Source of the DNA: a virus
Lineage: Duplodnaviria; Heunggongvirae; Uroviricota; Caudoviricetes
Length of the DNA: 64,000 nt
Virus record (IMG/VR): IMGVR_UViG_3300045538_000409
Strand: one strand, 5' to 3'
Positions 20,033 through 63,191 of the stretch are shown in pieces. Positions within the stretch are counted from its first letter, which is position 1. Each line of letters starts with the position of its first letter. A model generated the notes under the pieces. It worked only from the letters and a program-made list of their open reading frames with translations, was not told where the DNA came from and made no database searches. Both the position numbers and the translations under genes were made by a program.

Positions 20033-20403
20033 GGGGCTGACATTGGAAATTGATTATTAAACGATTCTAATTGTAAGGAAGTAGTGTTAAATGGAAACAC
20101 TTTAATAACCTATTAATACTTTTAAATGACAACGAATTTAACGTTGAACAAAACTTCCTTGAAACTTCAATAGTTGAAGTATATAAAGGAGAGGTAGCAT
20201 TAGCCTAATTCGAGTAATGTATTTGTGGTAAAACCACACAACACACCAATACTAAGGTGTTAAAATAGTAAATATGGATTACTACACACCATATAAACAA
20301 CGTAGTAGATTTTTTGGAAAGTTTTTTATAAAAACTATGACCTAAACTTCTAGAAATCATTTAAAACTTTAATAAGATTTGAGTTCGAATCTCAACAGCT
20401 CCA
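20033..20403 (+). ncRNA. ssrA: tmRNA (ssrA), one-piece, CCA not encoded
   Basis: 5' end GGGGCUGACAUUGG and 3' end GAUUUGAG-UUCGAAU-CUCAA-CAGCUCC-A. The acceptor pair GGGGCUG/CAGCUCC is identical to E. coli ssrA, and the T-arm is canonical. A promoter (TTGACA 19970 plus TATATATTTG 19991) lies upstream. A candidate tag ORF starts at ~20127 and ends ...GEVALA-UAA at 20207-20209. Confidence 0.75.
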
Positions 20404-20435
20404 CGAATATTACTTTTTATCATTTTATGTAAAAA

Positions 20436-28390: not shown

Positions 28391-29557
28391 ATGAAACAAA
28401 TAATTAAAAAAATGGTTAAACAAAAGTTACTTAAAGAAGAGAGGATAAAGTTAAATATACCTATTCCTGATGACATAATACAAATTAAAGATATATTCGT
28501 CAATAACGGATATAAGTTATATATTGTGGGTGGTTCTGTACGTGACTCATTACTTAACAAACCTATTAAGGATTACGATTTAGCTACTGACGCAACACCA
28601 GACCAAGTTGAAGATATAATGAATAAATCTGGTTTTAAAACACTACCAACTGGTAAAGCATTTGGGGTTATAAATGTGTTTACAGATACTAATGAATACG
28701 AAGTGGCCACGCTTAGGTCAGATGGGGAATATACAGATTCAAGGAGACCTGACTCAGTAACATTCAGCGATATAAACTCAGATGCAGCCAGAAGAGACCT
28801 GACATGTAACGCTTTATATTATGATATAGATACCAAGGAAGTCATTGACTTAGTTGGTGGTATAAATGACCTTAGAAAAGGTATAATACGAACTGTAGGT
28901 AAACCAGAAGATAGATTTAAAGAGGATAAGTTAAGAATTCTAAGAAGTATTCGTTTTGCGGGTAGATTTGGTTCAGAATTGGACCCCAACATTGATAAAG
29001 TATTAAGTAATGACAGTAGTCTTAAAGGTATATCACCTGAAAGGATTAGAGATGAGTTCTTAAAGACGATTAAAAGTGCTAAGAGCATACAACAAGTATT
29101 TTTATTAATTGATAAATATAAATTATGGAATGAAATTTTTCCAGGTATTGATATCAATAAGAAGTTTGTTGAATCCAAAGACCCAATTATTGTTATCAGT
29201 ACCCTTATATTAGGTAACGAACCATCGAACTTAAGTAAGATTTTAAATAAATTAACATATTCAATAAGTGAAAATAAAGCTATTACTTTTTTAATTTCAT
29301 TTAGTACATTTAACGATATAAACAATGTGTACAAGATGAAGAAACTATTTAACGCTTCAAATGTTACTAATGAACAATTAAGAGAATTTAATAATATTAA
29401 TAAAATCTTACCAAGTAATGTCGTTGACACATTTATTAATTTCCAACTTAGCGTTACTGGCGACCAAGTTCAAAGTGAATTAGGAATTAAACCAGGACCA
29501 GAAATGGGTAAAACTATTGAAAAAATGGAAATTGATAACTTTAATAAACTTTTATAA
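28391..29557 (+). CDS. cca: tRNA nucleotidyltransferase (CCA-adding enzyme), with N-terminal CTS-like extension
   Basis: Head-domain motifs LYIVGGSVRD, DYDLATDA, RRD(L)TCNALYYD and ATLRSDGEYTDSRRPD. N-terminus MKQIIKKMVKQKLLKE precedes the catalytic core. Confidence 0.8.
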   Translation: MKQIIKKMVKQKLLKEERIKLNIPIPDDIIQIKDIFVNNGYKLYIVGGSVRDSLLNKPIKDYDLATDATPDQVEDIMNKSGFKTLPTGKAFGVINVFTDTNEYEVATLRSDGEYTDSRRPDSVTFSDINSDAARRDLTCNALYYDIDTKEVIDLVGGINDLRKGIIRTVGKPEDRFKEDKLRILRSIRFAGRFGSELDPNIDKVLSNDSSLKGISPERIRDEFLKTIKSAKSIQQVFLLIDKYKLWNEIFPGIDINKKFVESKDPIIVISTLILGNEPSNLSKILNKLTYSISENKAITFLISFSTFNDINNVYKMKKLFNASNVTNEQLREFNNINKILPSNVVDTFINFQLSVTGDQVQSELGIKPGPEMGKTIEKMEIDNFNKLL

Positions 29558-29577: not shown

Positions 29578-30258
29578 ATGAGAAGATTTGATAAAAATTT
29601 AAACATACAAAAAGCTAACCTATTAGCCGAACAAAGATACCTTGAGTCAAAGGAATTGTTAAAGGAAGAATCAATGAATTTAATAAAAGAAGAACAATTT
29701 ACAGATTTATTCAAATTCATAGCCCAAGACCCCAAGAAAATGACACAAGGTAGTGCTTATTATGTGGCAGACCTAAATTCTTCAATGAATAAAAACATTG
29801 TTGATGATGATGGTAATAAAATACCTAATCCTATGTACGGTAAATTATATAAACACACTAGATTCTTATTTAAATGGGAAGATACCTACTTAAAAGCTAT
29901 GGACAGAGTAGACCCAGAACATATCGCTGGTAAAAGAAGTGGTAATTACGAGAAAGTACAAGGTTATGATGTATTAGAAACAGGTAAAAGCGGTCTATAT
30001 TTACCAATAATACCAACTGGTAGTGAATATCAATATGTTGTCGATAACAATGGCAATATGGAGGTAATCGACAAAGAAACTGTTAAGAAATACTTAAGAC
30101 CAATGTCACCATCAACTATTTCCGCAACAGAAGCTGGTAAACCACTATTTAGACCACTTATTATTGATAAGGTGGCTAAAATAACTGGTGGTGGTAATGT
30201 TTGGAAAAATCCTAACTTTAAAGGTGTATATATGGGACCAGGTTCAACTACTAATTAA
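29578..30258 (+). CDS. hypothetical protein
   Basis: 226-aa ORF. Confidence 0.45.
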   Translation: MRRFDKNLNIQKANLLAEQRYLESKELLKEESMNLIKEEQFTDLFKFIAQDPKKMTQGSAYYVADLNSSMNKNIVDDDGNKIPNPMYGKLYKHTRFLFKWEDTYLKAMDRVDPEHIAGKRSGNYEKVQGYDVLETGKSGLYLPIIPTGSEYQYVVDNNGNMEVIDKETVKKYLRPMSPSTISATEAGKPLFRPLIIDKVAKITGGGNVWKNPNFKGVYMGPGSTTN

Positions 30259-31914: not shown

Positions 31915-32391
31915 ATGAATATTTTTGTATTAGATGAAGATGTAAAAAAATGTGCTGAGTATCATTTAGATAAACATTCCACTAAAATGTGTGTGGAATA
32001 TAGTCAAATTTTATGTAGCGTTCATCACATGACCGCAGAAGTTACTACAGAAGTACCTTATAGGTTAACGCATAAAAACCACCCTTGTTCAATATGGGCT
32101 AGAGAATGTATCGAGAATTATATATGGTTATGTGATTTAGGTTTAGAATTATGTAAAGAATACACACATAGATATGATAAGCGTCATAAGAGTCAAGATG
32201 TTATTGAATGGTGTATTATTAACAAACCAAATCTACCGACACATAATAAACTCACACCGTTTGCGTTAGCCATGCCAGATGAATATAAGTGTGATAATGC
32301 TATATCATCGTATAGAAAGTACTATATAATGGATAAAGGACACTTAGCAAATTGGACAAAAAGAAAAAAACCATTTTGGTTTGCAATTTAA
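31915..32391 (+). CDS. hypothetical Cys/His-rich protein
   Basis: 158-aa ORF with HPCSIWARECIENYIWLC...C; family not recognized. Confidence 0.45.
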   Translation: MNIFVLDEDVKKCAEYHLDKHSTKMCVEYSQILCSVHHMTAEVTTEVPYRLTHKNHPCSIWARECIENYIWLCDLGLELCKEYTHRYDKRHKSQDVIEWCIINKPNLPTHNKLTPFALAMPDEYKCDNAISSYRKYYIMDKGHLANWTKRKKPFWFAI

Positions 32392-35870: not shown

Positions 35871-38579
35871 ATGCAAAAATTAAATCAAACGTTTAAAATT
35901 AACCCTTTGTATGAAGCAGATGGGTATAAAGTAGCTCATCATAAAATGTTAGCTCCTGGAACTACTAAATTATATGGTACTTGGATACCTAGAAGCTTAA
36001 AGTATATGCCTAGCGGTATTGATAAGATTATGTCAGCAGGACAACAATTAGTTGTTAGACATTTACATAGTACTTTTCAAGAAAATTTCTTTGATAAAGA
36101 TTCTAATGTTGCTATACAGTTTGCAAATGATATGTCAGCTTACTTAGGCATGGATTATGATGGAACACATTTTTTAGATTTGTATAAGTTAGGTTACTTA
36201 CCAATTAGAGTTAAATCTTTACCAGAAGGTATTTTCACACAACCTAATATTCCACACATGACTTTTGTTAATACTGTTGATGGTTATGCTTGGTTAACTT
36301 TATTTTTAGAGACTTATATTTCTAAATTAGCTTGGCAAATGCCTACTGTAGCTACTATAGGTCATAAGTTTAAAGAAAATGCTAAAGCATGGGTAAATTA
36401 TACTGATAAAGAAAATTTATGGTTAGCTGATTTTATGTGTCATGATTTTCATAGTAGAGGTGGAAATCCATTTACATCAATAGCTTGTGGTTTAGGGTTT
36501 TCTTTATCAAATAAAGGTAGTGATACACTTAATATTATCCCCGCTAGTAGATATTATTACGATGAAGCTGAAGATAGTATGCCTATTTTTTCAGTTAATG
36601 CTAGTGAACATTCAGTTTCTACAACTAAAATTTTTACAGTAGGTGAGCAACAAATGATAGCAGATTGGTTAAAGTTATTTCCTACTGGTATTTTAAGTGT
36701 TGTTAGCGATACTTTTTCTCTTTGGGATTGTATTGAATACTTTAAAGAGCTTAAAGATGAAATTATGGGTAGAGATGGTAAGCTAGTGTGTAGACCAGAT
36801 TGTCTAGATGATAAATCTCAAATATTAACACCTAAAGGATGGAAATATTTTAAAGATTTAACAGAAAATGATTTAGTGGCACAAGTAAAAAAAGATGGTA
36901 TTTATGAATTTGTAAAACCTTTAAAAATAATTAACGAACCTTATGAAGGTGATATGTATGAAATAAGAGATTTTCATGGAAAAATAGATTTAGTAGTTAC
37001 TCCAAATCATAGATTGGTTTCTTATAAAAATTCAGATAATTCTATCTCTATAAAAGAAGCTTCTGATTACAAACAAAATTATTGGGAATATAAAAAATTA
37101 AGAAGTCCTAAATCTCAAAGTAAAGGTAGAGAGTTAACAGCCTATGAAAGATTTTTAATTGCCTTACAGGCTGATGGTTGTATTAAATATGTAAATAAAG
37201 ATTTAAGTACAAGAATAGAATTTAACTTTAAAAAAGAAAGAAAACACGATAGATTACTAGAAATACTTAAAAATACAGATTTAGAATATAACGTTTATTT
37301 TACTAAATCAAGACAAGGTCAATCTACATTTAGTGTGTTAATACCTTATAATAGAATGGTATCTAAAACATTTGATTGGGTAGATACTTCTAATTTAGAT
37401 AGTTTGTGGGCGGAAGAATTTATAGAAGAACTAAAATATTGGGATTCTTCTATTAGAAATGATGGTAGATTTAAGTATGATACTACAATTAAAGAAAATA
37501 TTGATGTTGTAGAACTTGTAGCAATTGCTGCGGGAAAAGGTGTTTATATTTCTGAGTCAGAAGATAATAGAAAAAAACATTTTTCTAATGTATATACTGC
37601 TCATATTTTAGATAATCCTTATGTTGGTGGACAGTCTATTACTAAAAACAAAATACATTATAAAGGAACTATACATTGTGTAAAAGTACCAACAGGTATG
37701 ATTTTAGTAAAAAGAAATCAAGGTGTTTGTGTTACTGGCAATAGTGGAGACCCTGTAGATATTATTTGTGGAGTTTCAACTAAATATCGAGATTTATCAG
37801 CATACCTTCCTGAAGGAGAAGTTTTACCTGAATATTTCGAAGAAGTTTTATTAGAAGAAGTTAGGGAAGATACCCCGCATGGAAAACGTGGTGTTAGAGA
37901 ATATGAAAATGTCTATACCGTAAGAGGTAAACTGTATAAGGCTAAAATACACAACATATCTTGGAATAGACATGATAAACAATACTATTTCATCGATATG
38001 TGGGAAAAAGCAGAAATTACAATCGAAGAATTAGAATGGAAACCTTCTGATAAAGGTGTAATAGAACTTCTTTGGGATATATTTGGCGGTACTGTAAATG
38101 AAGAAGGTTATAAAGTATTAGACCCACACATTGGGGCTATTTATGGTGACAGTATTAATCTTGAAAGACAAATTCAAATCTATGAAAGACTTGAAGCTAA
38201 AGGATTTGCTGCTAGTAATATTGTTTTAGGTGTAGGTAGCTATACTATGGTTATGCTTACGAGAGATTCAGCTGGGTATGCAGCTAAAGGTAGTTGGTTT
38301 GAAGTTAAAGAGGAAACAGGTAATTTGTTATTAACCGACCCACCACAACCCGAATACAAGGTAACATCATATAACATCTACAAAGACCCAGTAACTGATG
38401 GTGGTAGTAAAAAATCACTTAAGGGTTTGATGCAAGTTAAATTAGTAGATAATGAATATGTGGTAAATCAAGAATGCACTTGGGAACAAGAAGAAGATTC
38501 TGAATTAAAAACCATCTATGAAAATGGTGTGTTTAAAAATCAAACTACTTTAAGTGAAATTAGAAGCAGAGTTAGTTAA
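35871..38579 (+). CDS. nadV: nicotinamide phosphoribosyltransferase (NAMPT/NadV) interrupted by a 314-aa LAGLIDADG intein
   Basis: N-extein NPLYEADGYKVAHHKMLAPGTTKLY matches NAMPT [24 protein letters not shown]. C-extein GAIYGDSINL...VLGVGSYTMVMLTRD matches VIQGDGVDIN...AFGSGGGLLQKLTRD. The extein junction RPD|SGDP is the conserved active-site RPDSG. Confidence 0.85.
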   Translation: MQKLNQTFKINPLYEADGYKVAHHKMLAPGTTKLYGTWIPRSLKYMPSGIDKIMSAGQQLVVRHLHSTFQENFFDKDSNVAIQFANDMSAYLGMDYDGTHFLDLYKLGYLPIRVKSLPEGIFTQPNIPHMTFVNTVDGYAWLTLFLETYISKLAWQMPTVATIGHKFKENAKAWVNYTDKENLWLADFMCHDFHSRGGNPFTSIACGLGFSLSNKGSDTLNIIPASRYYYDEAEDSMPIFSVNASEHSVSTTKIFTVGEQQMIADWLKLFPTGILSVVSDTFSLWDCIEYFKELKDEIMGRDGKLVCRPDCLDDKSQILTPKGWKYFKDLTENDLVAQVKKDGIYEFVKPLKIINEPYEGDMYEIRDFHGKIDLVVTPNHRLVSYKNSDNSISIKEASDYKQNYWEYKKLRSPKSQSKGRELTAYERFLIALQADGCIKYVNKDLSTRIEFNFKKERKHDRLLEILKNTDLEYNVYFTKSRQGQSTFSVLIPYNRMVSKTFDWVDTSNLDSLWAEEFIEELKYWDSSIRNDGRFKYDTTIKENIDVVELVAIAAGKGVYISESEDNRKKHFSNVYTAHILDNPYVGGQSITKNKIHYKGTIHCVKVPTGMILVKRNQGVCVTGNSGDPVDIICGVSTKYRDLSAYLPEGEVLPEYFEEVLLEEVREDTPHGKRGVREYENVYTVRGKLYKAKIHNISWNRHDKQYYFIDMWEKAEITIEELEWKPSDKGVIELLWDIFGGTVNEEGYKVLDPHIGAIYGDSINLERQIQIYERLEAKGFAASNIVLGVGSYTMVMLTRDSAGYAAKGSWFEVKEETGNLLLTDPPQPEYKVTSYNIYKDPVTDGGSKKSLKGLMQVKLVDNEYVVNQECTWEQEEDSELKTIYENGVFKNQTTLSEIRSRVS
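36801..37742 (+). mobile_element. intein with LAGLIDADG homing-endonuclease domain inserted in nadV
   Basis: Begins with Cys1 (CLDDKSQ), has block B TPNH, LAGLIDADG-like LIALQADGC, and ends ...VCVTGN followed by Ser+1. Removing it restores the contiguous NAMPT motif RPD-SGDP. Confidence 0.75.
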
Positions 38580-38583
38580 ATAT

Positions 38584-38973
38584 ATGAGATTCATATTAAT
38601 ATTATTTATATCCTTAACCCTACAACAAGATAAGTTAGTAGGGTTTTGGATTATATCCACAAATGATTTAATAATTGAATGTTATGAGAAAAACGATAAA
38701 TATTATGGAAAAATACATTGGTTTAAAGACAATAATCCAGACAAGAAAAAATATTCAGAGAACGGTGTAATTAAATCAAAGTGGAATGGGTTTGTAGTCA
38801 TGTCAGACTTCACTTATATTGGTGATAGATTATCTGGTAAGATATATGACGTTAAAAATGGTCAAGAATATGACGCTTACATTGAAATAAATGGTGATAG
38901 GATAAAAGTAATTACTTATGTTTTTTTACCTATATTTGGTAAAGAAATGGAATTTAGAAGATATAAAAAATAA
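38584..38973 (+). CDS. hypothetical secreted protein
   Basis: Track ORF 38554..38973. The internal start MRFILILF gives a signal peptide and avoids overlap with nadV. Confidence 0.4.
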   Translation: MRFILILFISLTLQQDKLVGFWIISTNDLIIECYEKNDKYYGKIHWFKDNNPDKKKYSENGVIKSKWNGFVVMSDFTYIGDRLSGKIYDVKNGQEYDAYIEINGDRIKVITYVFLPIFGKEMEFRRYKK

Positions 38974-38979
38974 AAAAAA

Positions 38980-40095
38980 ATGGAACTAAACATCGTTAAA
39001 CATATAAAAAAATATGGTCTAGAAAAGGCCATTATTGATTTTGATTTAATATGCAAGGAGAATGGCAATCTTATATTACTTAAATACAATCAAATATCCT
39101 CTCCAATGGACAAAATAGAGGTTCAAGAATCTAGAGGTTTAATATTAGAAAAAGGTACATATAAGGTTATTTCAATGGCCTTTATGAAATTTTTCAATCA
39201 TGGTGAAACTAACGCAGCAAATATTGACTGGGACTCAGCGCATGTTTTAGATAAATTAGATGGGTCGCTACTTTCTTTATATCATTATAATGACACTTGG
39301 AATGTTTGTACAACAGGAACCATTAATGGTGAAGGTGAAGTTAATAATAAATATGGAACTACATTTAGAGATTTGTTTTGGGGTACAATAAATAGTAAAT
39401 ATAATTTCAATATTAATAAATTAAATAGTGACTATATATATGCTTTTGAATTAACGACACCTTATAATATTGTTGTTAAACCACATAGTGAATCATCCGC
39501 AACACTTCTTACAATTAGAAATAGAGAAAATCTTAAAGAAATACCTTATAATGAGTTAATTCCAGTTGCCAATGAATTAGGTGTACCTTTAGTTAAAAGG
39601 TATGATTTTAACATTAAAAATGTTGATGTTTTAATTAAGACTTTTGAAAATATGCCATGGTCAGAGGAAGGTTATATTGTTTTAGATGGTAACTTTAGTA
39701 GAATTAAGATAAAAAATCCAGCATATGTTGCGGTTCATTTATTAAAAAATAGAACATCAGAACATTCAATAATGGAAATTGTTAAGTCTAATGAAATTGA
39801 AGAGTTTGCATCAACATTTATAGAGAGAAGAGAAGAGATTTATAATCTTCATAAAAACTATAATGAATTAATTAATAAATTAGAAAATATATGGAAATTG
39901 CTTGAACCATTAAAACCAAAAGACATATCTCCAGAAGAAAAAAAGAGGTATGCTATGGAAGTCTTTAGAGTATGTGAAGAAAATGATATTAAGATGTTTA
40001 CAGGACTTTATTTTGGTTTAAACGATGGTAAAATTGAATCTATTGGTGAATATATGATGAATTATGATAATAAAAGATTATATCAAATTTTATGA
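38980..40095 (+). CDS. ATP-dependent RNA ligase (Rnl family)
   Basis: Nucleotidyltransferase motif I KLDGS, motif IV EGYIVLDG and motif V RIKIKNPAY. Confidence 0.75.
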   Translation: MELNIVKHIKKYGLEKAIIDFDLICKENGNLILLKYNQISSPMDKIEVQESRGLILEKGTYKVISMAFMKFFNHGETNAANIDWDSAHVLDKLDGSLLSLYHYNDTWNVCTTGTINGEGEVNNKYGTTFRDLFWGTINSKYNFNINKLNSDYIYAFELTTPYNIVVKPHSESSATLLTIRNRENLKEIPYNELIPVANELGVPLVKRYDFNIKNVDVLIKTFENMPWSEEGYIVLDGNFSRIKIKNPAYVAVHLLKNRTSEHSIMEIVKSNEIEEFASTFIERREEIYNLHKNYNELINKLENIWKLLEPLKPKDISPEEKKRYAMEVFRVCEENDIKMFTGLYFGLNDGKIESIGEYMMNYDNKRLYQIL

Positions 40096-56054: not shown

Positions 56055-56235
56055 TTTTATAAATTTGATGTTAGTTATAAAATACCTTATAACATCCGCA
56101 GGTAGGTGATGTGGTGGAATTTGGAACACAAAAATATACGTAAATACTGAACTTGATTTAATAACAAACTTAAATATTAAATATAAACCTTAATAGGGTA
56201 TTTCATATATACCTTATTAGTAACAGTTACTTATT

Positions 56236-56427: not shown

Positions 56428-56596
56428 TTGTTGCTAACGGTTGCAAATATATTGTCGTTTTAATGCAATATATTTGATGTTATGCTCTCGTGCCGAATTA
56501 TTAACCGATAATGTTTATTTGAAACACGAAAGAAAAACAAAAAGAATTTTGGGTGGATATTTTAAATTTGGATATTTATATATAAACATAAAAACT

Positions 56597-57166
56597 ATGA
56601 GTGAAGATATACGAAAAATGATTGATAAAGTTAAGAATTTTAAGCAGTTTGTTAATGAAAATCAATACCAAGATAATGCTTTGGATAAAATCAATAAACT
56701 TGGAGGATTTAAAAATTTACCAGATATTGATAAATTAGCATTATTATCTGATTCCGATAAATATGAAGAATTAAAAAAATTAAATTTAAGTAATATTTAC
56801 AAAGATAACGGTGGCACTTTTGGTAGATTTAACATAAAAATAATGGTTAAACCATTAAAAGAACAACCAATCGACCATAGATTTAGTAAAGAGTTTCAAA
56901 ATAAAATAGGATGGCTATATCCTTATATCGATTATGACGATAGCGGTAATGGATATGTTACTGTTAGATTTGATGAATATATACCAGATAATAAGATGAA
57001 AGGTGGTGGTATTTACACTGAAAGACCTATTATGCTTAAAAATATATTTCCAATTGCTATAACTGATGTTAAATCTGAATTTAAGGATTATGATAAAAGA
57101 ATTGATGTAGATAGGAACGATTTTTTAAATAGATTAGGTTTTGATTCTAACGAATTTAATTGGTAA
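56597..57166 (+). CDS. hypothetical protein
   Basis: Track ORF 56441..57166. Internal start MSEDIRK chosen. Confidence 0.45.
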   Translation: MSEDIRKMIDKVKNFKQFVNENQYQDNALDKINKLGGFKNLPDIDKLALLSDSDKYEELKKLNLSNIYKDNGGTFGRFNIKIMVKPLKEQPIDHRFSKEFQNKIGWLYPYIDYDDSGNGYVTVRFDEYIPDNKMKGGGIYTERPIMLKNIFPIAITDVKSEFKDYDKRIDVDRNDFLNRLGFDSNEFNW

Positions 57167-57395
57167 ACTATGTTAGGTAATTCTTTTTGTTTTTCATCAC
57201 AAATGTTAAATCGAAGAACTGAATTAAGACATGGAGCATAACGTATGCAAATATAAAACGTTTTAAACAGAACTTAAATAGAATGAATAAACTTGACAAT
57301 TATTATAAACTTTATTTTGAAAAACGAATAAAATGTTTTATATTTGTTGTTATAAGTATGTAAAACAAAAAATATACAATTAAAAAATAAATATA

Positions 57396-57570
57396 TGGAC
57401 GAAGAACAAAAAAAATCTGAAGAAATATTCATACTGATGAATATAGGTAAAATGACAGTGACAGAAATAAACACATTAACAGATAAAGAAAGATTTTTTT
57501 TATCTAAATGGTTTATGGAAAAGTTAAAAAACGAAGAACAAATGTATAAGGAACGATTTAAAAAATCATA
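57396..57570 (+). CDS. hypothetical small protein
   Basis: 58-aa ORF not in the track, downstream of TTGACA and a TATATTTG motif. Confidence 0.35.
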
Positions 57571-57585
57571 ATTTTTATTTTATTA

Positions 57586-57676
57586 CTTATAACGCTTGGT
57601 AGCTAACAGAAGTGGCTGCTTGTAAGAACTTCTGAATTTAAAACAAATGCTTGTAGCAGCCATTTTTGTTAGGTGC
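57586..57676. repeat. intergenic inverted-repeat element E1 (YTAACGKT-family); ~90% identical copy at 59832..59930
   Basis: Ends CTTATAACGCTTGGTAGCTAACA ... TGTTAGGTGCTGTTATAAG. Internal hairpin CAGAAGT/ACTTCTG with GGCTGCT...AGCAGCC. Confidence 0.6.
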
Positions 57677-57704
57677 TGTTATAAGCTGTAAAAAATTACA
57701 TGCA

Positions 57705-57929
57705 ATGGCTTTATTAAAAGGAGAACAAATTAAAATTGATACACCAACCTTGAAGAAAATGGTTGGTACTAAAGTTGAATATCTACTTGAAAGAGATATT
57801 GACAAAAGTGGACGTGGTTATTTTAGCCCTAAATACGGTATAATCACTGAGGTAATAAGAAGACAAGTAGATTTAGGCAATGGATGTCATGAGCCATTTT
57901 CTTCAATTCGTGAGATGGTGTTGCGGTAA
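57705..57929 (+). CDS. hypothetical protein
   Basis: Track ORF 57666..57929. The internal start MALLKGE avoids the inverted-repeat element E1. Confidence 0.4.
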   Translation: MALLKGEQIKIDTPTLKKMVGTKVEYLLERDIDKSGRGYFSPKYGIITEVIRRQVDLGNGCHEPFSSIREMVLR

Positions 57930-58011
57930 TTTTTTATTGCTTATAACGGTTCTCGGATATATCTTAGTTCCGATTTTAATAAATAATTAAAAACTTTAAA
58001 TAAATAGAAAA

Positions 58012-58233
58012 ATGTCAGAAAACGAAAACACTTTATTAGGACACGTATCGGAATTAGATATATCCGATGTTATGAAACGTGCTTACTTCTTAATTCCAGA
58101 TGGAGAAGCTACTTTTGCTTATTATAGTACAAAGGCTTATTACAACGAAGAAGGTTGGTATATGTATGATGTAGATAACATAAGACAGTTCTTACCCGAA
58201 AGTTGGTTAGTACTTCAAAAGCATGTTTCATAA
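58012..58233 (+). CDS. hypothetical protein
   Basis: 73-aa ORF. The stop lies in the CATAACGTTACG palindrome. Confidence 0.4.
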   Translation: MSENENTLLGHVSELDISDVMKRAYFLIPDGEATFAYYSTKAYYNEEGWYMYDVDNIRQFLPESWLVLQKHVS

Positions 58234-58260
58234 CGTTACGCAAATAAATACAGTACGATT

Positions 58261-58539
58261 ATGAAAGCAACAGATTATTTTAAGCACAAAGTTGAAAGCG
58301 GAGAGATGACATCCGAAGAAGCACTAAAGCAAGTATTGGATTTATTTGATGTTAGCGGCAGTTTTATTGATACTTTGATTGAAAAATATACGGAACAAAA
58401 AAAGTTGGCTATTAAAAACGCACAACAATTTAAAGACCATCCAAAATATGAATGGTATGATGCAACTTTCAATAACACATTACTTTTTTTGTGGGACTTG
58501 GAAGATATAAAATGTAGAAGTGGTATGTCTGATGACTAA
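58261..58539 (+). CDS. hypothetical protein
   Basis: 92-aa ORF. Confidence 0.4.
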   Translation: MKATDYFKHKVESGEMTSEEALKQVLDLFDVSGSFIDTLIEKYTEQKKLAIKNAQQFKDHPKYEWYDATFNNTLLFLWDLEDIKCRSGMSDD

Positions 58540-58543
58540 ATTG

Positions 58544-58640
58544 CCACTAACGTGTTGTGTATGAGCAGTGGCACTTGTACACACTTTCAAATTAGCTACA
58601 TCGCTTGTGTGCCATTGCTTATACACGGTGTTAGGTGCAG
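58544..58640. repeat. intergenic inverted-repeat element (YTAACGKT-family)
   Basis: CCACTAACGTGTTGTGTATGAGCAGTGGCAC ... GTGCCATTGCTTATACACGGTGTTAGGTGCAG, imperfect ~35-bp arms. Confidence 0.5.
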
Positions 58641-58672
58641 TATTTTATTGATTATTAATTAAATATATAAAT

Positions 58673-59158
58673 ATGAAAACAAAAATTATTTCAGCATTCC
58701 CTGGTACAGGGAAAAGTGTTTATCACTCAAAACACAAAGAAACTACATTAGATAGTGATTCATCTAATTTTAGTTGGATTATTGATGAAAATGGGAATAA
58801 GGTAAGAAACCCTGAATTTCCAAAAAATTACATAGACCATATTAAAGAAAATATTGGTAAATATGAGTTTATATTTGTTTCATCACATAAAGAAGTTAGA
58901 GATGCGTTATTTGAAAACTGCATTTTCTTTTATTTGGTTTATCCAGACGATAGACGAAAAGATGAATTTATTGAACGCTATAAGAACAGAGGTAATAATG
59001 AAAAATTCATTGAATTAGTTTCAAATAAATGGGATGATTGGATGAAAGAAATTTGGTTTTTACCTGATGGTTGTAAGCATATCAATATGGTTTTAGATAA
59101 TCTTGAAGATGAAATAAGACATTTAAAAGCTGTTGAACATGGCGAGGTTGATTCTTAA
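58673..59158 (+). CDS. P-loop NTPase-like protein
   Basis: Walker A-like SAFPGTGKSV near the N-terminus. Confidence 0.5.
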   Translation: MKTKIISAFPGTGKSVYHSKHKETTLDSDSSNFSWIIDENGNKVRNPEFPKNYIDHIKENIGKYEFIFVSSHKEVRDALFENCIFFYLVYPDDRRKDEFIERYKNRGNNEKFIELVSNKWDDWMKEIWFLPDGCKHINMVLDNLEDEIRHLKAVEHGEVDS

Positions 59159-59165
59159 TATTGCA

Positions 59166-59258
59166 CCTAACGGTTGGGTATATGTGAAGTACCTTACCAC
59201 AGAACTTTAAAATTTAGTAGAAACTTTATGATGTATTTCACATATACCTTGTTATAAA
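59166..59258. repeat. intergenic inverted-repeat element (YTAACGKT-family)
   Basis: CCTAACGGTTGGGTATATGTGAAGTAC ... GTATTTCACATATACCTTGTTATAAAC. Confidence 0.55.
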
Positions 59259-59446
59259 CATGTAAAATTATGAGATTAAAATTACCTAAATTGGGTGAAA
59301 CACGAAACATAAAAAAATTTGCATTTTTACCAATAAAAGCAAAAAACTTAAATATAGATAGATATGAAATAAGATGGTTTTGTTTCGTGTTTATTCATCA
59401 AAGATATGCACATGAATGGTTAAATGAATATTTTATAGATAAATAA

Positions 59447-59598
59447 TTTTATTGTGTATAACGTTTTGCGTGTATAAGAAGTGGTGGATTAGAACCCAGA
59501 AACTTTCAGTAAACGCAGAACTTAATTAGAATTACAAAACTTTAAATTAATCGAGAACCCGCCATTTTTTATACACGCTGTTAGTGGCTGGGCTTTTC
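59447..59598. repeat. intergenic inverted-repeat element (YTAACGKT-family)
   Basis: TATAACGTTTTGCGTGTATAAGAAGTGG ... CCATTTTTTATACACGCTGTTAGTGG. Confidence 0.5.
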
Positions 59599-59826
59599 AT
59601 AAAACTAAATAAAATGTTTAACAACAATCAAATTCAAAAAGTAGAGATAGACCAAGAGAAGAAAAAACTTTATGTCTATTACATTCAGGACAACTCACAT
59701 TTAATGAGCAATCCGCCACCACCTCCAAGTTATTACAGAGAAGTTTTTTCTTTCGATAATTTGGAATTTATTGAAAAGGAATACGCAAAAGTAGAGCGTA
59801 GTTTTGAAAAGGTAACGTGGTCATAG
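59584..59826 (+). CDS. hypothetical protein
   Basis: 80-aa ORF. Confidence 0.4.
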   Translation: MAGLFIKLNKMFNNNQIQKVEIDQEKKKLYVYYIQDNSHLMSNPPPPPSYYREVFSFDNLEFIEKEYAKVERSFEKVTWS

Positions 59827-59831
59827 CCTTG

Positions 59832-59930
59832 CCACTAACGTTTTGCAGCTAACAGAAGTGGCTACTTGTAAGAACTTCTGAATTAAAAACAAATGCTTAT
59901 GCAGCCATTTTTGTTAGGTGCTGTTATAGG
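59832..59930. repeat. intergenic inverted-repeat element E2 (copy of E1)
   Basis: CCACTAACGTTTTGCAGCTAACAGAAGTGGCTACTTGTAAGAACTTCTGAATTAAAAACAAATGCTTATGCAGCCATTTTTGTTAGGTGCTGTTATAGG aligns with E1 with ~10 differences. Confidence 0.6.
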
Positions 59931-59948
59931 TTGTAAAATTTACGGATT

Positions 59949-60191
59949 ATGAAAGTAACAGATTTTATTGGAGTGAAAGTCAAATACGATGAAGATGGAC
60001 AATTTATTTGGGGAATTGAAAAGGATGGAGGACATCAAAAACTTGCTGATTTAAGAGGTTGGGGAGCAATTCAAAACTTATTCATCAATAAGGATAAATC
60101 AATTGATTTAGATGCAGCAGCAAGTTTTCAAGATGAATTTGGTAGATGGATTGTCGAAGCTATAAACGAGAAATTGGAACGGGAACGGTAA
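59949..60191 (+). CDS. hypothetical protein
   Basis: 80-aa ORF. Confidence 0.4.
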   Translation: MKVTDFIGVKVKYDEDGQFIWGIEKDGGHQKLADLRGWGAIQNLFINKDKSIDLDAAASFQDEFGRWIVEAINEKLERER

Positions 60192-60296
60192 GTAAATTTT
60201 ATTACCTATAACGTTTCGCAGCTATATTTAGTTGCGGATTTTGAAACAAAAAACTTTAAATTAAGAATAAATTGTCAAACTTAAAAAATACATAAA

Positions 60297-61079
60297 ATGG
60301 AATTAGTCTTTTTATCAAATGGCCAAGCCTGTTACCTAAAAGAAAAAATAGGCGGTAAATATATAGTAAACAAAGTGTTTAAGTACGAAGATGAAGAAAA
60401 TGGGTGGCAAGATGTACAAGATGCAAATGATATTGTAGTTGATGCTGTATTTAACAAACCACCTATTGAAAAAATAGATGCTGAAATTAAAGAATTACAA
60501 CTTAAAAAGAAGCAAACTCTTTCTGAAATTTCAGAACTTGAAAGTAAAAAGCGCACAGTTAAAAACGAAGTTGAGCAAATAACTAAAACACAAGTTTCTA
60601 ATAGCAAATTTATAATTAACAGAAGTGATTTGATAAATGCTAAAACTTTGGCTTTATTTATGAAAGACCGCCCATTACCAAAACTAATGGATAATAGTAA
60701 CAAATCTTTTAGAGGTTTAAAAGTTTGTTTAACTGTTGAAATATCTACTGGACTTGAAAGAAGCTGGGCTTATAGCTTGTATTATGATTATGAAGGAAGT
60801 AGCGATTACCTGTGTGAAAAATACGGCATATTAATAAACCCAACACAAGAAGAAATAGATACTATTATAGTTAAAAGGCTTTCAGAGTTTAAATTTAGCG
60901 ACCATTGGATAAAAAGTGTTGATGACAAATATTTGACAGCAGAACAATTGAAACAAAAAAATGAATATTTAGAAAGTGAAAGAGTTAAAGAAAAGGCAAA
61001 ATTAGAAAAACAGATATTGGAAACGCAGGAAAAACTTTCAAAGTTGCAGAGTGCTAACGATTGCCTGTATGTAAAATAA
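60297..61079 (+). CDS. hypothetical coiled-coil protein
   Basis: 260-aa ORF. Confidence 0.45.
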   Translation: MELVFLSNGQACYLKEKIGGKYIVNKVFKYEDEENGWQDVQDANDIVVDAVFNKPPIEKIDAEIKELQLKKKQTLSEISELESKKRTVKNEVEQITKTQVSNSKFIINRSDLINAKTLALFMKDRPLPKLMDNSNKSFRGLKVCLTVEISTGLERSWAYSLYYDYEGSSDYLCEKYGILINPTQEEIDTIIVKRLSEFKFSDHWIKSVDDKYLTAEQLKQKNEYLESERVKEKAKLEKQILETQEKLSKLQSANDCLYVK

Positions 61080-61090
61080 AAAAATAAATT

Positions 61091-61396
61091 ATGAATACAG
61101 TAGAAAATACCACTTGCACAAAACCAATGTTAGCAGAAGTTTTTGTTGGTTCAATTTCAGAAATACGAGAATTTTTTAATCGTAAATGGTGTAGAATGCA
61201 TAAGATTGATGAAAGCAAGTGGAAACATATTGCACCATCATCAATAGATGGATTGAAGATTAAAAACATAGAAAGTGGTTTTGAAATGTCTTTTTGGGCA
61301 GGTAGTTCGGGAACAAATAATATGGCAATAGATAGTAAAGGTGGATGTCACGATTTGTCATTTCATAGTAGTTACACGTTTGAGGTAGTCGTTTAA
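61091..61396 (+). CDS. hypothetical protein
   Basis: 101-aa ORF. Confidence 0.4.
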   Translation: MNTVENTTCTKPMLAEVFVGSISEIREFFNRKWCRMHKIDESKWKHIAPSSIDGLKIKNIESGFEMSFWAGSSGTNNMAIDSKGGCHDLSFHSSYTFEVVV

Positions 61397-61402
61397 CATT
61401 TC

Positions 61403-61496
61403 TGCTAACGGTTGGCAATATATGTAGTTGTCTTGCACGAACTTATCAATTTAGTATAAACCTTAATAGGCAATTACATATATTGCTTGTTAGCAA
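61403..61496. repeat. intergenic inverted-repeat element (YTAACGKT-family), near-perfect 25-bp arms
   Basis: TTGCTAACGGTTGGCAATATATGTA ... TACATATATTGCTTGTTAGCAA. Confidence 0.6.
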
Positions 61497-61794
61497 ACGT
61501 TCCTTTATGAGTGATATTATTAAAAAGTTAGAAGAAAATCAGTTTCAAACAGTAAAAAAATCAAATGTAAAATGTCCAATATGTAATGGTGATTTATATA
61601 CAGTTGATAATTGGATGATGATAGTTATGGATGGTAATACTGTTTATCATTGCGAAAATGTTGAAGAACATAAATTTTGGAATCATCCGTTTGAAGATAG
61701 AAATATTTTACATTTGAACAAAAATGCAAGTGAAACTGATTGGACATCTGAACAAGACTATAGATTAGTAGACGGTTCTTGGTATGTTTGCTAA
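61483..61794 (+). CDS. hypothetical zinc-ribbon protein
   Basis: CPICNG...HCEN motif. The stop lies in GCTAACGG. Confidence 0.4.
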   Translation: MLVSKRSFMSDIIKKLEENQFQTVKKSNVKCPICNGDLYTVDNWMMIVMDGNTVYHCENVEEHKFWNHPFEDRNILHLNKNASETDWTSEQDYRLVDGSWYVC

Positions 61795-61822
61795 CGGATA
61801 ACAAATAAAAGAAGTAAAATAC

Positions 61823-62029
61823 ATGAAAGAACTAATATTAAAAATAGCAAAAGAACTTGAAGAAGGTACTATAACTGAAACTGAATCACAAACACTTTTA
61901 TTACGTTTATTTGGTGTTATAAAACCGTTTGTTTGTGATAAACATCCAAACGCAAATACATATACTAGTACTACTGGTAAAATATGTTGTATAAAATGTA
62001 TATTTGATTCACAAACTAATGTTTTATAA
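61823..62029 (+). CDS. hypothetical protein
   Basis: 68-aa ORF. Confidence 0.4.
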   Translation: MKELILKIAKELEEGTITETESQTLLLRLFGVIKPFVCDKHPNANTYTSTTGKICCIKCIFDSQTNVL

Positions 62030-62118
62030 CGTTTTGCGTATATGAGAAGTGGCACTTGTAGAATGTTATAATTTAGCACAAATGCTTCTGTACCATTTCT
62101 TATATACGCTGTTAGCAG
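62025..62118. repeat. intergenic inverted-repeat element (YTAACGKT-family)
   Basis: TATAACGTTTTGCGTATATGAGAAG ... CTTATATACGCTGTTAGCAG. Confidence 0.55.
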
Positions 62119-62306
62119 TAGTACGGATTATTAACAAATAAATTAAATAAAATGAAAAAATTATTGTACTTATTATTAAAGAAAGATATGATTAAGAAGT
62201 TGAGTAAAAAACACGGAACTCAATTTGTTGATGATGTTATGTCAACTTTTGGAATGCCAACTGATACAACTAATGAATATTTAAACTCACTAAAACAAAC
62301 AGAAAA

Positions 62307-62531
62307 ATGCGAATCTATCAATTAAAAACAGCAAAAGAATTTTTAGATTATTTCAAAGATTCTAATTTAAGTCAAGAACAATTGATGCATATGTACGCAG
62401 AAGATGTAGCAAAAAGATTTGCTGCTGAATGTGTAAACGAAGCACTTGGAAATAAAATGGAAGTATCAAACTCTTTACATCACGCAATTGAAGGTAAGTA
62501 TAGAAGTATTATTTGGAATAACGAGGGTTAG
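62307..62531 (+). CDS. hypothetical protein
   Basis: 74-aa ORF. A 56-aa ORF at 62153..62323 partly overlaps upstream. Confidence 0.35.
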   Translation: MRIYQLKTAKEFLDYFKDSNLSQEQLMHMYAEDVAKRFAAECVNEALGNKMEVSNSLHHAIEGKYRSIIWNNEG

Positions 62532-62803
62532 TATTACTGCTAACGGTCTCAGGTATATACAGTTACATAAATAACAGATAAACTTAATTAAAAGAGATAA
62601 GATATGAAAAACAAGAAAAGTAAATTAAAAGAACAACAGGAGCAATTGGATATACCTGTTGTTAGCAAACGTAAACCTGAACCACCTAAACCACCAAAAG
62701 ACAGAGAGGTTCATTTAGGTGGATTTAGTAGACATAAACGAGCTTGATTTATGTTTGCTAACATCTCGGTTTACGCAGTTCAAAAAATAAAAAAACCCAC
62801 TTA

Positions 62804-62838
62804 GATGGAGCGAATATCTAAGTGGGTTAACAAGCAGC
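62804..62838 (-). terminator. hairpin with U-tract only on the minus strand
   Basis: AACCCACTTAGAT...ATCTAAGTGGGTT. An A-run precedes it on + (a T-run on minus) and no T-run follows on +. Confidence 0.4.
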
Positions 62839-62984
62839 CGAAGCTATATACGGTCCTAAACGTATATTATTTTTTCAAAAAATTAACAACTTTCATTGGG
62901 TTTACATCTTTATATTTCATTATAAATGAGGGTAAATCTTTCACTTTTTTTGATATGTAAGATATTAATTCAGAAGATTTAAAG

Positions 62985-63191
62985 TTGAAAAATTATTCGC
63001 AAAACACGATTGAAAATTATGTTTGTCAAGTTAGATGTTTTTTAGAATACTTCAACAAAGTTGCTACTAAACCATCAGAAATATCTGAAAGACAGGTGAA
63101 AGAATGGATATTAAAAGTTGATTCTATTAATGGTAGGAAACACAGGATTTCAGCTATAAAATTATTAAATAAGGTTGCATTACCAATATAA
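62985..63191 (+). pseudogene. tyrosine recombinase/integrase N-terminal SAM-like (core-binding) domain only; catalytic domain absent
   Basis: KNYSQNTIENYVCQVRCFLEYF...PSEISERQVKEWILKV...NGRKHRISAIKLLNKVA matches Phage_integrase_N SAM-like domain logic (LSxnTxxaYxxdlxxFxxfl...i..wi..l...l....i...l..l..). The ORF ends after 68 aa. Confidence 0.5.

Follow-up and report, generated by a model that had tools for sequence, protein, structure and literature searches.

The 64,000-nucleotide stretch of DNA analyzed here as a whole, which we call the window, belongs to a Caudoviricetes virus recorded in IMG/VR (IMGVR_UViG_3300045538_000409). It is AT-rich (28.6% G+C), has nearly all of its genes on the + strand and carries 11 tRNA genes, a tmRNA gene and phage-type RNA-repair and NAD-salvage genes. 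No close cultured phage relative was found, and a megablast search of the window end against cultured phages returned a tRNA match only. From 56435 to 62762 (+), the window holds an array of 14 units in which hairpins lie between small + strand open reading frames (ORFs). Each unit extends between two successive TAAC cores and comprises a hairpin followed by one or two small + strand ORFs. The first seven units start at 56435, 57239, 57590, 57944, 58231, 58548, and 59168, the last seven at 59459, 59836, 60209, 61406, 61792, 62027, and 62541, and a terminal core at 62759 closes the array, beyond which lies the remnant of a tyrosine recombinase gene. We consider it likely that the hairpins serve as attC-like recombination sites in an integron-like gene-cassette system carried by phages.

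The elements begin with an invariant TAAC, mostly followed by G and preceded by A, C or T, and their far end is GTTA. The + strand of the window contains 83 copies of TAACG, 19 of them within 56.4-62.8 kb, and 14 of these 19 are element starts. Seven hairpins of approximately 90 nt were evident (57590, 58548, 59168, 59459, 59836, 61406, and 62027), and a profile built from them added a compact element (56435), a degenerate one (56090) and single 3' arms situated within ORFs. These stray arms were resolved by pairing each TAAC with the GTTA sites downstream of it, and they belong to long-loop elements (57239, 57944, 58231, 61792, and 62541) with loops of 90-100 nt. In the last four, but not in the element at 57239, the 3' arm and GTTA lie within the next ORF; the loops of the same four hold the start codon of that ORF. 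A covariance model trained on 91 diverse family members and run unfiltered over all 64 kb matched the array only, with six matches at 63-80 bits, another at 56435-56482 and a partial one on 59459-59583. An nhmmer search of the window agrees with this picture, and the short-loop elements folded as single-stranded DNA with z-scores of -1.9 to -3.9. The long-loop elements that fold weakly were accepted because a flank rule, described below, holds for them.

A preliminary description, made from the sequence alone, had reported hairpins between the small ORFs of 57586-62865. The covariance model, nhmmer and folding results place their existence far beyond chance. Elements occupy that range as described, and the array starts upstream of it, with the elements E0b (56435) and E0c (57239) and the degenerate E0 (56090). 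The terminal motif YTAACGKT proposed at that time proved too narrow: it has 14 matches in the window versus 8.3 expected, with four in 57586-62865 and a fifth at 56434. As this is barely above chance window-wide, we replaced it by the TAAC/GTTA core plus structure. Four elements that had been taken as short or minimal (57944, 58231, 61792, and 62541) are full elements whose 3' arm sits in the next ORF. The TAA of the core, thought often to be or directly follow the upstream stop codon, is that stop in three of the 14 elements (58231, 61792, and 62027), while in the remaining elements the stop precedes the core by 9-18 nt. The arms are indeed complementary within each element and different between elements, and two near-identical copies, E1 (57590) and E7 (59836), stand upstream of unrelated genes with 95% identity over 81 nt.

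Hairpins conserved as structure and units bounded by TAAC

To survey the family, we located loci in viral contigs and genome collections with a pattern of the elements' own conserved letters and confirmed them with the profile, which misses divergent hairpins; loci retrieved through the recombinase and cultured isolates made up two sets independent of that pattern. The family is spread over hundreds of contigs of Bacteroidota phages. In viral contigs, more than 120 stretches had the pattern and 117 were profile-confirmed, many of them with arrays of three to seven copies. Genome collections yielded 54 confirmed stretches, nearly all of them short contigs of Bacteroidota metagenome-assembled genomes (MAGs). 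The elements fall into few sequence types that recur nearly unchanged in contigs of 24-44% G+C. Their lengths range from 48 nt (E0b) to 140 nt, and those of a 357-element survey set from 78 to 140 nt with a median of 89. Orphan DNA methyltransferases are abundant among the cassette cargo of other loci.

What is conserved in the hairpin is its structure, and the strand that carries the genes folds better. Within the aligned family, the TAAC and GTTA ends are invariant. RNAalifold applied to 91 diverse members gave a 19-bp stem with compensatory changes in 17 of its 19 pairs. Across these 91 elements, 94.8% of the stem cells were paired versus 69.0% in shuffles, and the covariation score was 0.635 versus 0.162 in shuffled alignments (none of 500 shuffles reached 0.635) and at most 0.124 in slid registers. 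The wobbles within the stem comprised 214 G·T against 25 A·C, with one G·T present in 89 of the 91 elements, and the + strand was the more stable one in 76 of 91 (mean 1.8 kcal/mol; p = 6e-12). The same G·T bias characterizes the recombined strand of integron attC sites (PMC5027507). The consensus stem has no conserved bulge that would correspond to extrahelical bases; beside the core is an asymmetric internal loop with 5 nt on the AAC arm versus 1-2 nt opposite.

The outer flanks of a unit are complementary to each other. The 5-6 nt that follow GTTA pair with the flank before the next TAAC and not with the element's own 5' flank. In the window, this rule holds for all 13 elements with a 3' arm, with weaker pairing for E5, and the pairing typically consists of six Watson-Crick pairs, then a G·T and then one further pair. 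When all loci were searched for the 5 nt after GTTA in reverse complement and followed by TAAC, 256 of 344 elements had such a sequence within 2.5 kb downstream (median spacing, 426 nt), against 18 for the upstream control and 4 for the element's own 5' flank. Because the flanks of successive cores pair, each gene is enclosed by inverted repeats adjoining its two cores. Such complementarity is what would be expected if a hairpin and its downstream gene had once been circular, with the flanks completing the base of the hairpin.

Exchange points also lie on the TAAC core. Among 324 internal similarity ends between loci, 117 fell within 6 nt of TAACG (9.1 expected) and 26 exactly at the T of TAAC, at a resolution limited to the shared 4-5 nt of the core; TGTTA, the 3' core, was not enriched among these ends (17 versus 19.2 expected). 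The window unit at 62027-62544 is 100% identical to positions 4866-5383 of contig L106 in unrelated surroundings, and the unit at 59836-60212 is 95% identical to segments of contigs L006 and L079 in unrelated contexts. In both cases, identity begins and stops at TAAC. The recombinase genes of two other loci (L030 and L214) are 100% identical, and so are the cassettes that both loci carry, yet the order of these cassettes differs; all junctions fall at TAAC, between unrelated hairpin types that have only 4-13 nt in common. Identity this short argues against homologous exchange and against assembly chimeras, and junctions that share a core of 4-5 nt between unrelated hairpin types are in keeping with exchange that is site-specific and not homologous. 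The occurrence of identical cassettes in various orders and contexts, with similarity breaking at the terminal motif, supports the earlier suggestion that these are mobile gene-shuffling modules.

An early reading of the unit as an ORF with a downstream attC and a crossover at G/TTA was dropped, the block boundaries lying at the 5' TAAC. The unit is the hairpin first and then the gene, which explains the ORF starts inside loops. The G·T bias of the + strand, at first counted against an integron-like mechanism, supports such a mechanism once the array is read along the folding strand. Outside arrays, solo copies of the window cassettes C11 and C7 were seen at L106 5383-5470, L006 1888-1975, and L079 4633-4720. 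They are flanked by TAAC on both sides, suggesting insertion at secondary TAAC sites, comparable to the insertion of integron cassettes at genomic GTT sites.

A co-oriented recombinase gene and its adjacent site

The recombinase remnant of the window spans 62976-63191 (+; ORF 62985-63191). It encodes an N-terminal SAM-like domain (PF02899, 24.1 bits) and corresponds to residues 13-83 of a 277-amino-acid (aa) enzyme, the catalytic domain being deleted. A search for a second tyrosine recombinase in the window found none. Between the last TAAC core and this stump, at 62797-62829, lies a perfect 11-bp inverted repeat (cccacttagat ... atctaagtggg) after an A-run, which reads as an intrinsic terminator on the minus strand.

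In intact systems, arrays end at TAAC-TAYTATATGTA just upstream of a co-oriented recombinase gene of approximately 275 aa. The full-length enzyme lies downstream of the array and on the same strand in 10 of the 13 element-bearing loci that have it. As a reciprocal test, we fetched 80 viral loci by recombinase homology alone. Upstream of the recombinase, 417 kb contained 80 elements, all on the strand of the gene, whereas 690 kb downstream contained four (p = 4e-29). A conserved site, ATTnnnnn-TAAC-TAnTATATnTA, precedes the recombinase ATG by 55-125 nt in approximately 40 of 50 loci, and the last cassette of the arrays abuts it. We regard it as a putative attI-like primary site. In the window, this type of site had matches at chance level only, and the terminal core at 62759 lacks the TAYTATATGTA that follows it elsewhere.

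Judged from its profile matches, the recombinase belongs to the Xer/IntI clade. It is nearest to XerA, XerD, and IntI and scores below every curated cut-off: the best family, NF040815 (XerA/integron integrase), gave 198 bits for a cut-off of 220, and TIGR02249 (IntI) gave 164 bits in two stretches for a cut-off of 265. The SPL tail at the C-terminus of IntI is retained. In an alignment with VchIntIA (2a3v), residues 176-247 of IntI4 have only residues 173-201 of the phage enzyme opposite them, which leaves approximately 43 residues missing where IntI has its specific insertion (I2 helix). Single elements were also seen near larger tyrosine recombinases of the same clade (approximately 365-445 aa) in four Bacteroidota MAG contigs (L123, L160, L170, and L176). 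These proteins share the SP(L/A/F)D tail and carry one more domain at the N-terminus, and in all four contigs the recombinase gene is convergent to the element, unlike in the phage arrays.

Distant homologs of the recombinase (31-32% identity) are annotated as integrases in the cultured Polaribacter phages Leef_1 (L291) and Freya (L290, L292, and L293), where they are preceded by small ORFs, AAC...GTT hairpins and a TAAC-nnn-CCTATA site. In Leef_1, the hairpin cores read CCAAC...GTTGG, which leaves AAC and GTT as the only universal letters. The Freya isolates (Freya_1 to Freya_10), with genomes of 44.0 to 48.9 kb, differ by 0-4.9 kb of hairpin-led cassettes. Freya_1 and Freya_10 differ by a cassette block of 4,942 bp next to the integrase, bounded exactly by ...attgtttaC/AAC and ...attgttgcT/AAC-acccctataac. 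Compact members of 49-59 nt were found on the minus strand of Polaribacter phage P12002L (L294) at 30008-30056, 32223-32281, 38035-38090, and 38879-38936. They immediately precede DNA methyltransferase genes (three) and a Mom-like gene; the annotation of this phage lists no recombinase. One of these members is the published P12002L_attC1 (TGCTAACGG...TTGTTAGGCG), and published attC oligonucleotides of Pseudoalteromonas phage PH101 start with TAACG and end with TTGTTA.

A probable gene-cassette system and its alternatives

Taking these observations together, we lean towards the view that Bacteroidota phages carry a gene-capture platform of their own, a sister or convergent counterpart of the integron. 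A compact Xer/IntI-like enzyme devoid of I2 would recombine folded sense-strand hairpins at TAA/C and would accumulate and trade hairpin-led cassettes at the primary site next to its gene. The mobile unit would read TAA/C-G, 5' arm, loop, 3' arm, GTTA, a 6-nt flank x, one or two small genes, the complementary flank x' and TAA/. The recombinase would excise this unit as a circle through recombination between two TAAC cores of the folded + strand. Within the circle, x' and x would complete a basal stem of approximately 12 bp, above which the asymmetric internal loop and then the main stem of 19 bp would follow. The circle would be re-inserted at the site beside the recombinase gene or at another TAAC, and the single-strand exchange would be resolved by replication, as in integrons and CTX-phi. 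The benefit is likely that small accessory genes can be gained, lost and exchanged quickly. In the window, such a platform is decayed: it has 14 cassettes but lacks a primary site, and only a stump of the recombinase is left. Its array is for that reason either frozen or serviced in trans.

The system resembles integrons in several respects. Small single-gene units are split by imperfect palindromes in which structure and not sequence is conserved, and no letters are invariant except a terminal AAC and, at the opposite end, GTT. Integron attC sites are imperfect inverted repeats of approximately 57-141 nt, a description that the present family also fits. Exchange falls at the AAC located 5' on the strand that folds better and is favored by G·T mispairs, and a primary site lies beside the gene of an Xer/IntI-clade tyrosine recombinase. 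Along the folding strand, the order is sites, primary site and co-oriented recombinase gene in both systems (PMC5027507). Cassettes are reordered, and singletons occur elsewhere. The differences are nevertheless considerable. The phage recombinase of approximately 275 aa keeps the SPL tail and lacks the insertion of approximately 40 aa (I2 helix), and instead of extrahelical bases the phage hairpins have a 5-nt versus 1-2-nt internal loop and conserved G·T wobbles. An integron cassette is a promoterless ORF followed by attC and transcribed away from attI, whereas here the hairpin leads and the polarity is opposite, cassettes being transcribed towards the recombinase gene. Furthermore, the phage system resides in virulent-looking Bacteroidota phage genomes. 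As the IntI insertion, the extrahelical bases and the RYYYAAC/GTTRRRY motifs are absent and the polarity is reversed, we did not file the system as an integron. Under our interpretation, it is a new phage-borne variant of the integron type, of which the window holds a decayed array devoid of an integrase.

Xer-based systems offer further parallels. At attP(+) of CTX-phi, XerCD, an Xer enzyme devoid of the IntI insertion, recombines a folded single-stranded DNA hairpin that mimics a duplex core with an unpaired center, exchanging one strand pair and leaving replication to resolve the product. Dif modules are likewise discrete gene modules bounded by Xer sites. However, no dif-like 11-6-11 site is present here, and the arrays consist of hairpins of approximately 90 nt served by a single phage-encoded recombinase.

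Several points weigh against a cassette system of this kind. All of the evidence is computational, and the circles, cleavage, binding, single-strand chemistry and role of the recombinase are inferred from it. The single-strand chemistry in particular would proceed without the insertion that integron integrases need for single-stranded attC. A bias towards G·T is equally expected from selection on an RNA hairpin, the folding strand being the sense strand. The window itself has neither an intact recombinase nor a primary site, and three of its long-loop elements (E3, E10, and E12) fold weakly in isolation. Of the 60 recombinase loci that have 1 kb or more of upstream sequence, only 39 contained a profile-detectable element. 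The element-derived loci were ascertained with a pattern taken from the elements themselves, and most contigs are metagenomic assemblies. In addition, the integron integrase IntI1 did not recombine the sole family member with a published test, P12002L_attC1, in Escherichia coli, in an assay that used a foreign enzyme (PMC9892861).

One alternative is that the hairpins act in RNA as processing sites, stabilizers or attenuators of a polycistronic transcript, the conserved ends and loop serving for recognition, with gene shuffling being incidental. The sense strand is the one that folds, G·U is favored in the counts given above, with one wobble nearly invariant, and a conserved motif of the short loops (AACTTnnAAATTAG) is otherwise unexplained. 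On the other hand, an Rfam search returned no relevant match and no terminator-like T-runs were seen. Moreover, RNA elements leave unexplained why DNA similarity breaks at a 4-nt core, why a flank pairs with the next TAAC several hundred nucleotides away and why the elements stand, co-oriented and on one side only, upstream of a recombinase gene. We therefore judge an explanation by RNA elements alone to be quite improbable. In addition to recombination, the hairpins may have an RNA role, given that the sense strand folds and that the short loops share a motif.

We give similarly little credence to the array being a true bacterial integron fragment, in which ordinary attC sites from a Bacteroidota host are recombined by the IntI of that host. 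Small attC-like clusters, termed CALINs (clusters of attC sites lacking integron integrases), have been described beside orphan methyltransferase genes in virulent phages including P12002L (Qi et al., 2023; PMC9892861), and HattCI called P12002L_attC1 an attC site (PMC9892861). The AAC...GTT ends, the hairpins of variable sequence and the array of small ORFs all agree with this explanation, and the window, with 14 sites and only a recombinase stump, fits in descriptive terms the picture of a CALIN, for which two or more attC sites called by the IntegronFinder or HattCI models and no IntI nearby are required. Nevertheless, gene polarity is reversed, the ORF following its hairpin on the TAAC-to-GTTA strand in 258 of 271 cassettes. 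The integron motifs are present in only 6-8% of sites (RYYYAAC at the 5' end of 23/357, GTTRRRY at the 3' end of 27/357 and both in 5/357), and extrahelical bases are not conserved. The phage genomes have their own recombinase, devoid of the IntI insertion, and their own primary site, while the matches in genome collections are nearly all short Bacteroidota MAG contigs and not chromosomal integrons. The failure of IntI1 on P12002L_attC1 also speaks against ordinary attC sites. Qi et al. (2023) read their phage clusters as components of bacterial integrons without an integrase, and their account contains no cognate recombinase of phage origin, nor does it mention a primary site, a reversal of gene polarity, a flank rule, or a large family with arrays (PMC9892861). 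Within an incomplete coverage of the literature, we found no phage system of this kind beyond that study.

An ordinary lysogeny integrase with its attP, accompanied by unrelated repeats (of the miniature inverted-repeat transposable element type or the IS200/IS605 type) that accumulate in an accessory region, appears very improbable. The integrases of Leef, Freya, and Ingeline were read as signs of a temperate lifestyle by Bartlau et al., who do not mention the arrays (PMC8776804), and attP often adjoins int genes. Yet the int-proximal site and the hairpins share the TAAC core and the cassette-end context ATTnnnnn-TAAC, and in the Freya isolates cassette blocks are inserted exactly at the int-proximal site. 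Nor would independent repeats be expected to keep so strictly to one side and one strand, and the window has no other relative of a recombinase. No HUH (Y1) transposase match was found among the 20 window ORFs scanned (10 of the array region against Pfam and PHROGs and 10 others against PHROGs only), no dedicated HUH scan having been made. The IS200/IS605 and REP/RAYT (repetitive extragenic palindrome and its associated tyrosine transposase) families have subterminal hairpins at both ends of a unit, unlike the present arrays with one hairpin per unit.

The least credible alternative is the class to which the preliminary description had likened the elements, the promoter early stem-loop (PeSL) cassettes of T4-type phages (Arbiol 2010; Comeau 2014): these too are conserved intergenic stem-loops among small ORFs in plastic regions of large phages, with exchange of small-gene modules, possibly through mini-circles, and one loop here (E0c) does hold a Bacteroidota-type promoter, but PeSLs combine a strong sigma-70 promoter with a terminator and recombine by homology, whereas here promoters and terminators are not enriched, the arms of neighboring elements differ, TAAC(G) is all that unrelated hairpin types, or a hairpin and a non-hairpin site, have in common at the junctions, exchange is fixed to a 4-nt core, and a homology-driven exchange would explain neither the flank rule nor the association with a dedicated tyrosine recombinase. 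Sigma-70-type promoters were not in excess in the window (38 versus 48.2 expected) and none was systematically placed in elements, in a scan with sigma-70 and Bacteroidota -33/-7 patterns from which phage-specific promoters may differ. Intrinsic terminators were absent from all elements, no T-run following the stems.

If the cassette-system interpretation is true, single genes would move between phages as hairpin-tagged circles. This would be a concrete mechanism, accessible to testing, behind the hyperplasticity of accessory regions across a large group of environmental phages. Integron-type recombination would then extend to viruses, with a simpler enzyme, and this would bear on the origin of IntI from Xer and on the need for the I2 insertion and extrahelical bases. 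The "integrases" of virulent marine flavophages would be cassette recombinases instead of markers of lysogeny, and the CALINs reported earlier in phages would be pieces of a phage system and not borrowed bacterial integrons. The TAAC...GTTA ends with the flank rule would supply a sequence tag for cataloguing mobile accessory genes from metagenomes. Many of the cassette genes, often orphan methyltransferases, are probably anti-defense genes. Lastly, a small recombinase with compact, programmable hairpin sites could serve as a tool.

Individual elements and other features of the window

All elements of the window lie on the + strand. At its upstream edge, E0 (56090-56219) is degenerate or chimeric, with a 5' TAAC, a 3' half that resembles E5 and ATTA in place of GTTA at its end; a stray 3'-arm remnant, tttgatGTTA (56063-56073), lies beside it. 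E0b (56435-56482) is a compact 48-nt hairpin of the form TAAC-GGTTG-CAAATATATTG ... CAATATATTTG-AT-GTTA, recognized by the covariance model (30.9 bits) and by its fold (z = -3.1). The long-loop hairpin E0c (57239-57352) carries in its loop (57316-57346) a Bacteroidota-type promoter (TTTG-N19-TAtaTTTG) for the ORF at 57395-57571. It is the sole promoter pattern of this type in the array, so the other cassettes may be expressed by read-through.

Six elements are assigned to sequence types A to E. E1 (57590-57681; 62.9 bits; cargo ORF 57705-57929) and E7 (59836-59926; 75 bits) are both type B, and in both the main stem contains a nested second TAAC...GTTA pair (57604/57668 and 59850/59913) that is itself a hairpin of 65-68 nt. 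E4 (58548-58633; 70.5 bits) is type C, and its cargo ORF at 58673-59158 encodes a P-loop protein (phrog_4182). Type D is represented by E5 (59168-59254; 80.1 bits; cargo ORF 59270-59446) and type E by E9 (61406-61492; 76.1 bits; z = -3.0; cargo ORF 61507-61794). E11 (62027-62114; 77.6 bits; z = -3.9) is type A, the commonest one in other contigs. E6 (59459-59583) is a hairpin with an enlarged loop, a partial match to the covariance model and a cargo ORF at 59614-59826. E8 (60209-60245) is the only element without a 3' arm, consisting of the 5' core and 5' arm alone, and is followed by two cargo ORFs (60297-61079 and 61091-61396); intact relatives of E8 are present in L214 and L283. A conserved motif, AACTT(n1-3)AAATTAG(C/T)AC...AAATG, recurs in the short loops, for example at 57625-57650, 59200-59220, 61436-61456, and 62060-62085. 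It contains no recognizable promoter and is not used elsewhere in the window.

The remaining elements have long loops. E2 (57944-58072) has 25-bp arms (arm duplex, -29.5 kcal/mol; z = -3.2), and the ORF at 58012-58233 starts in its loop and reads through the 3' arm. E3 (58231-58354) and E10 (61792-61919) have weak arms and a core TAA that is the stop of the upstream ORF, and their loops contain the starts of the ORFs at 58261-58539 and 61823-62029, respectively. The ORF at 62604-62747 starts in the loop of E12 (62541-62664), the 3' flank of which pairs with the gtttgc preceding the terminal TAAC core (62759-62762), which closes the last cassette. Long-loop ORFs read through the 3' arm in the window (57944-58233, 58231-58539, 61792-62029, and 62541-62747) as well as in L030 (925-1174 and 2711-3026). 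The GTT of GTTA is an in-frame Val codon in these ORFs, as in ...ELDISDV/MKRAY, ...LDLFDV/SGSF, and MKNKKSKLKEQQEQLDIPVV/SKRK. The 3' arm of long-loop elements would in this way be a recombination site and coding sequence at once. Across all loci, 62 of 96 loop-started ORFs used the GTT=Val frame, a count confounded by related sequences.

Elsewhere in the window, an ORF of 902 aa at 35871-38579 encodes a nicotinamide phosphoribosyltransferase. Its residues 311-626, approximately, match ribonucleotide reductase, PhoH and thymidylate-synthase phage families, an intein-like pattern. A set of RNA-repair and translation genes includes an RtcB-like gene (phrog_850; 13262-14698), a CCA-adding tRNA nucleotidyltransferase gene (28391-29557) and an RNA ligase gene (38980-40095). 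The tmRNA gene lies at 20033-20404, and the 11 tRNA genes are located within 22429-53761.

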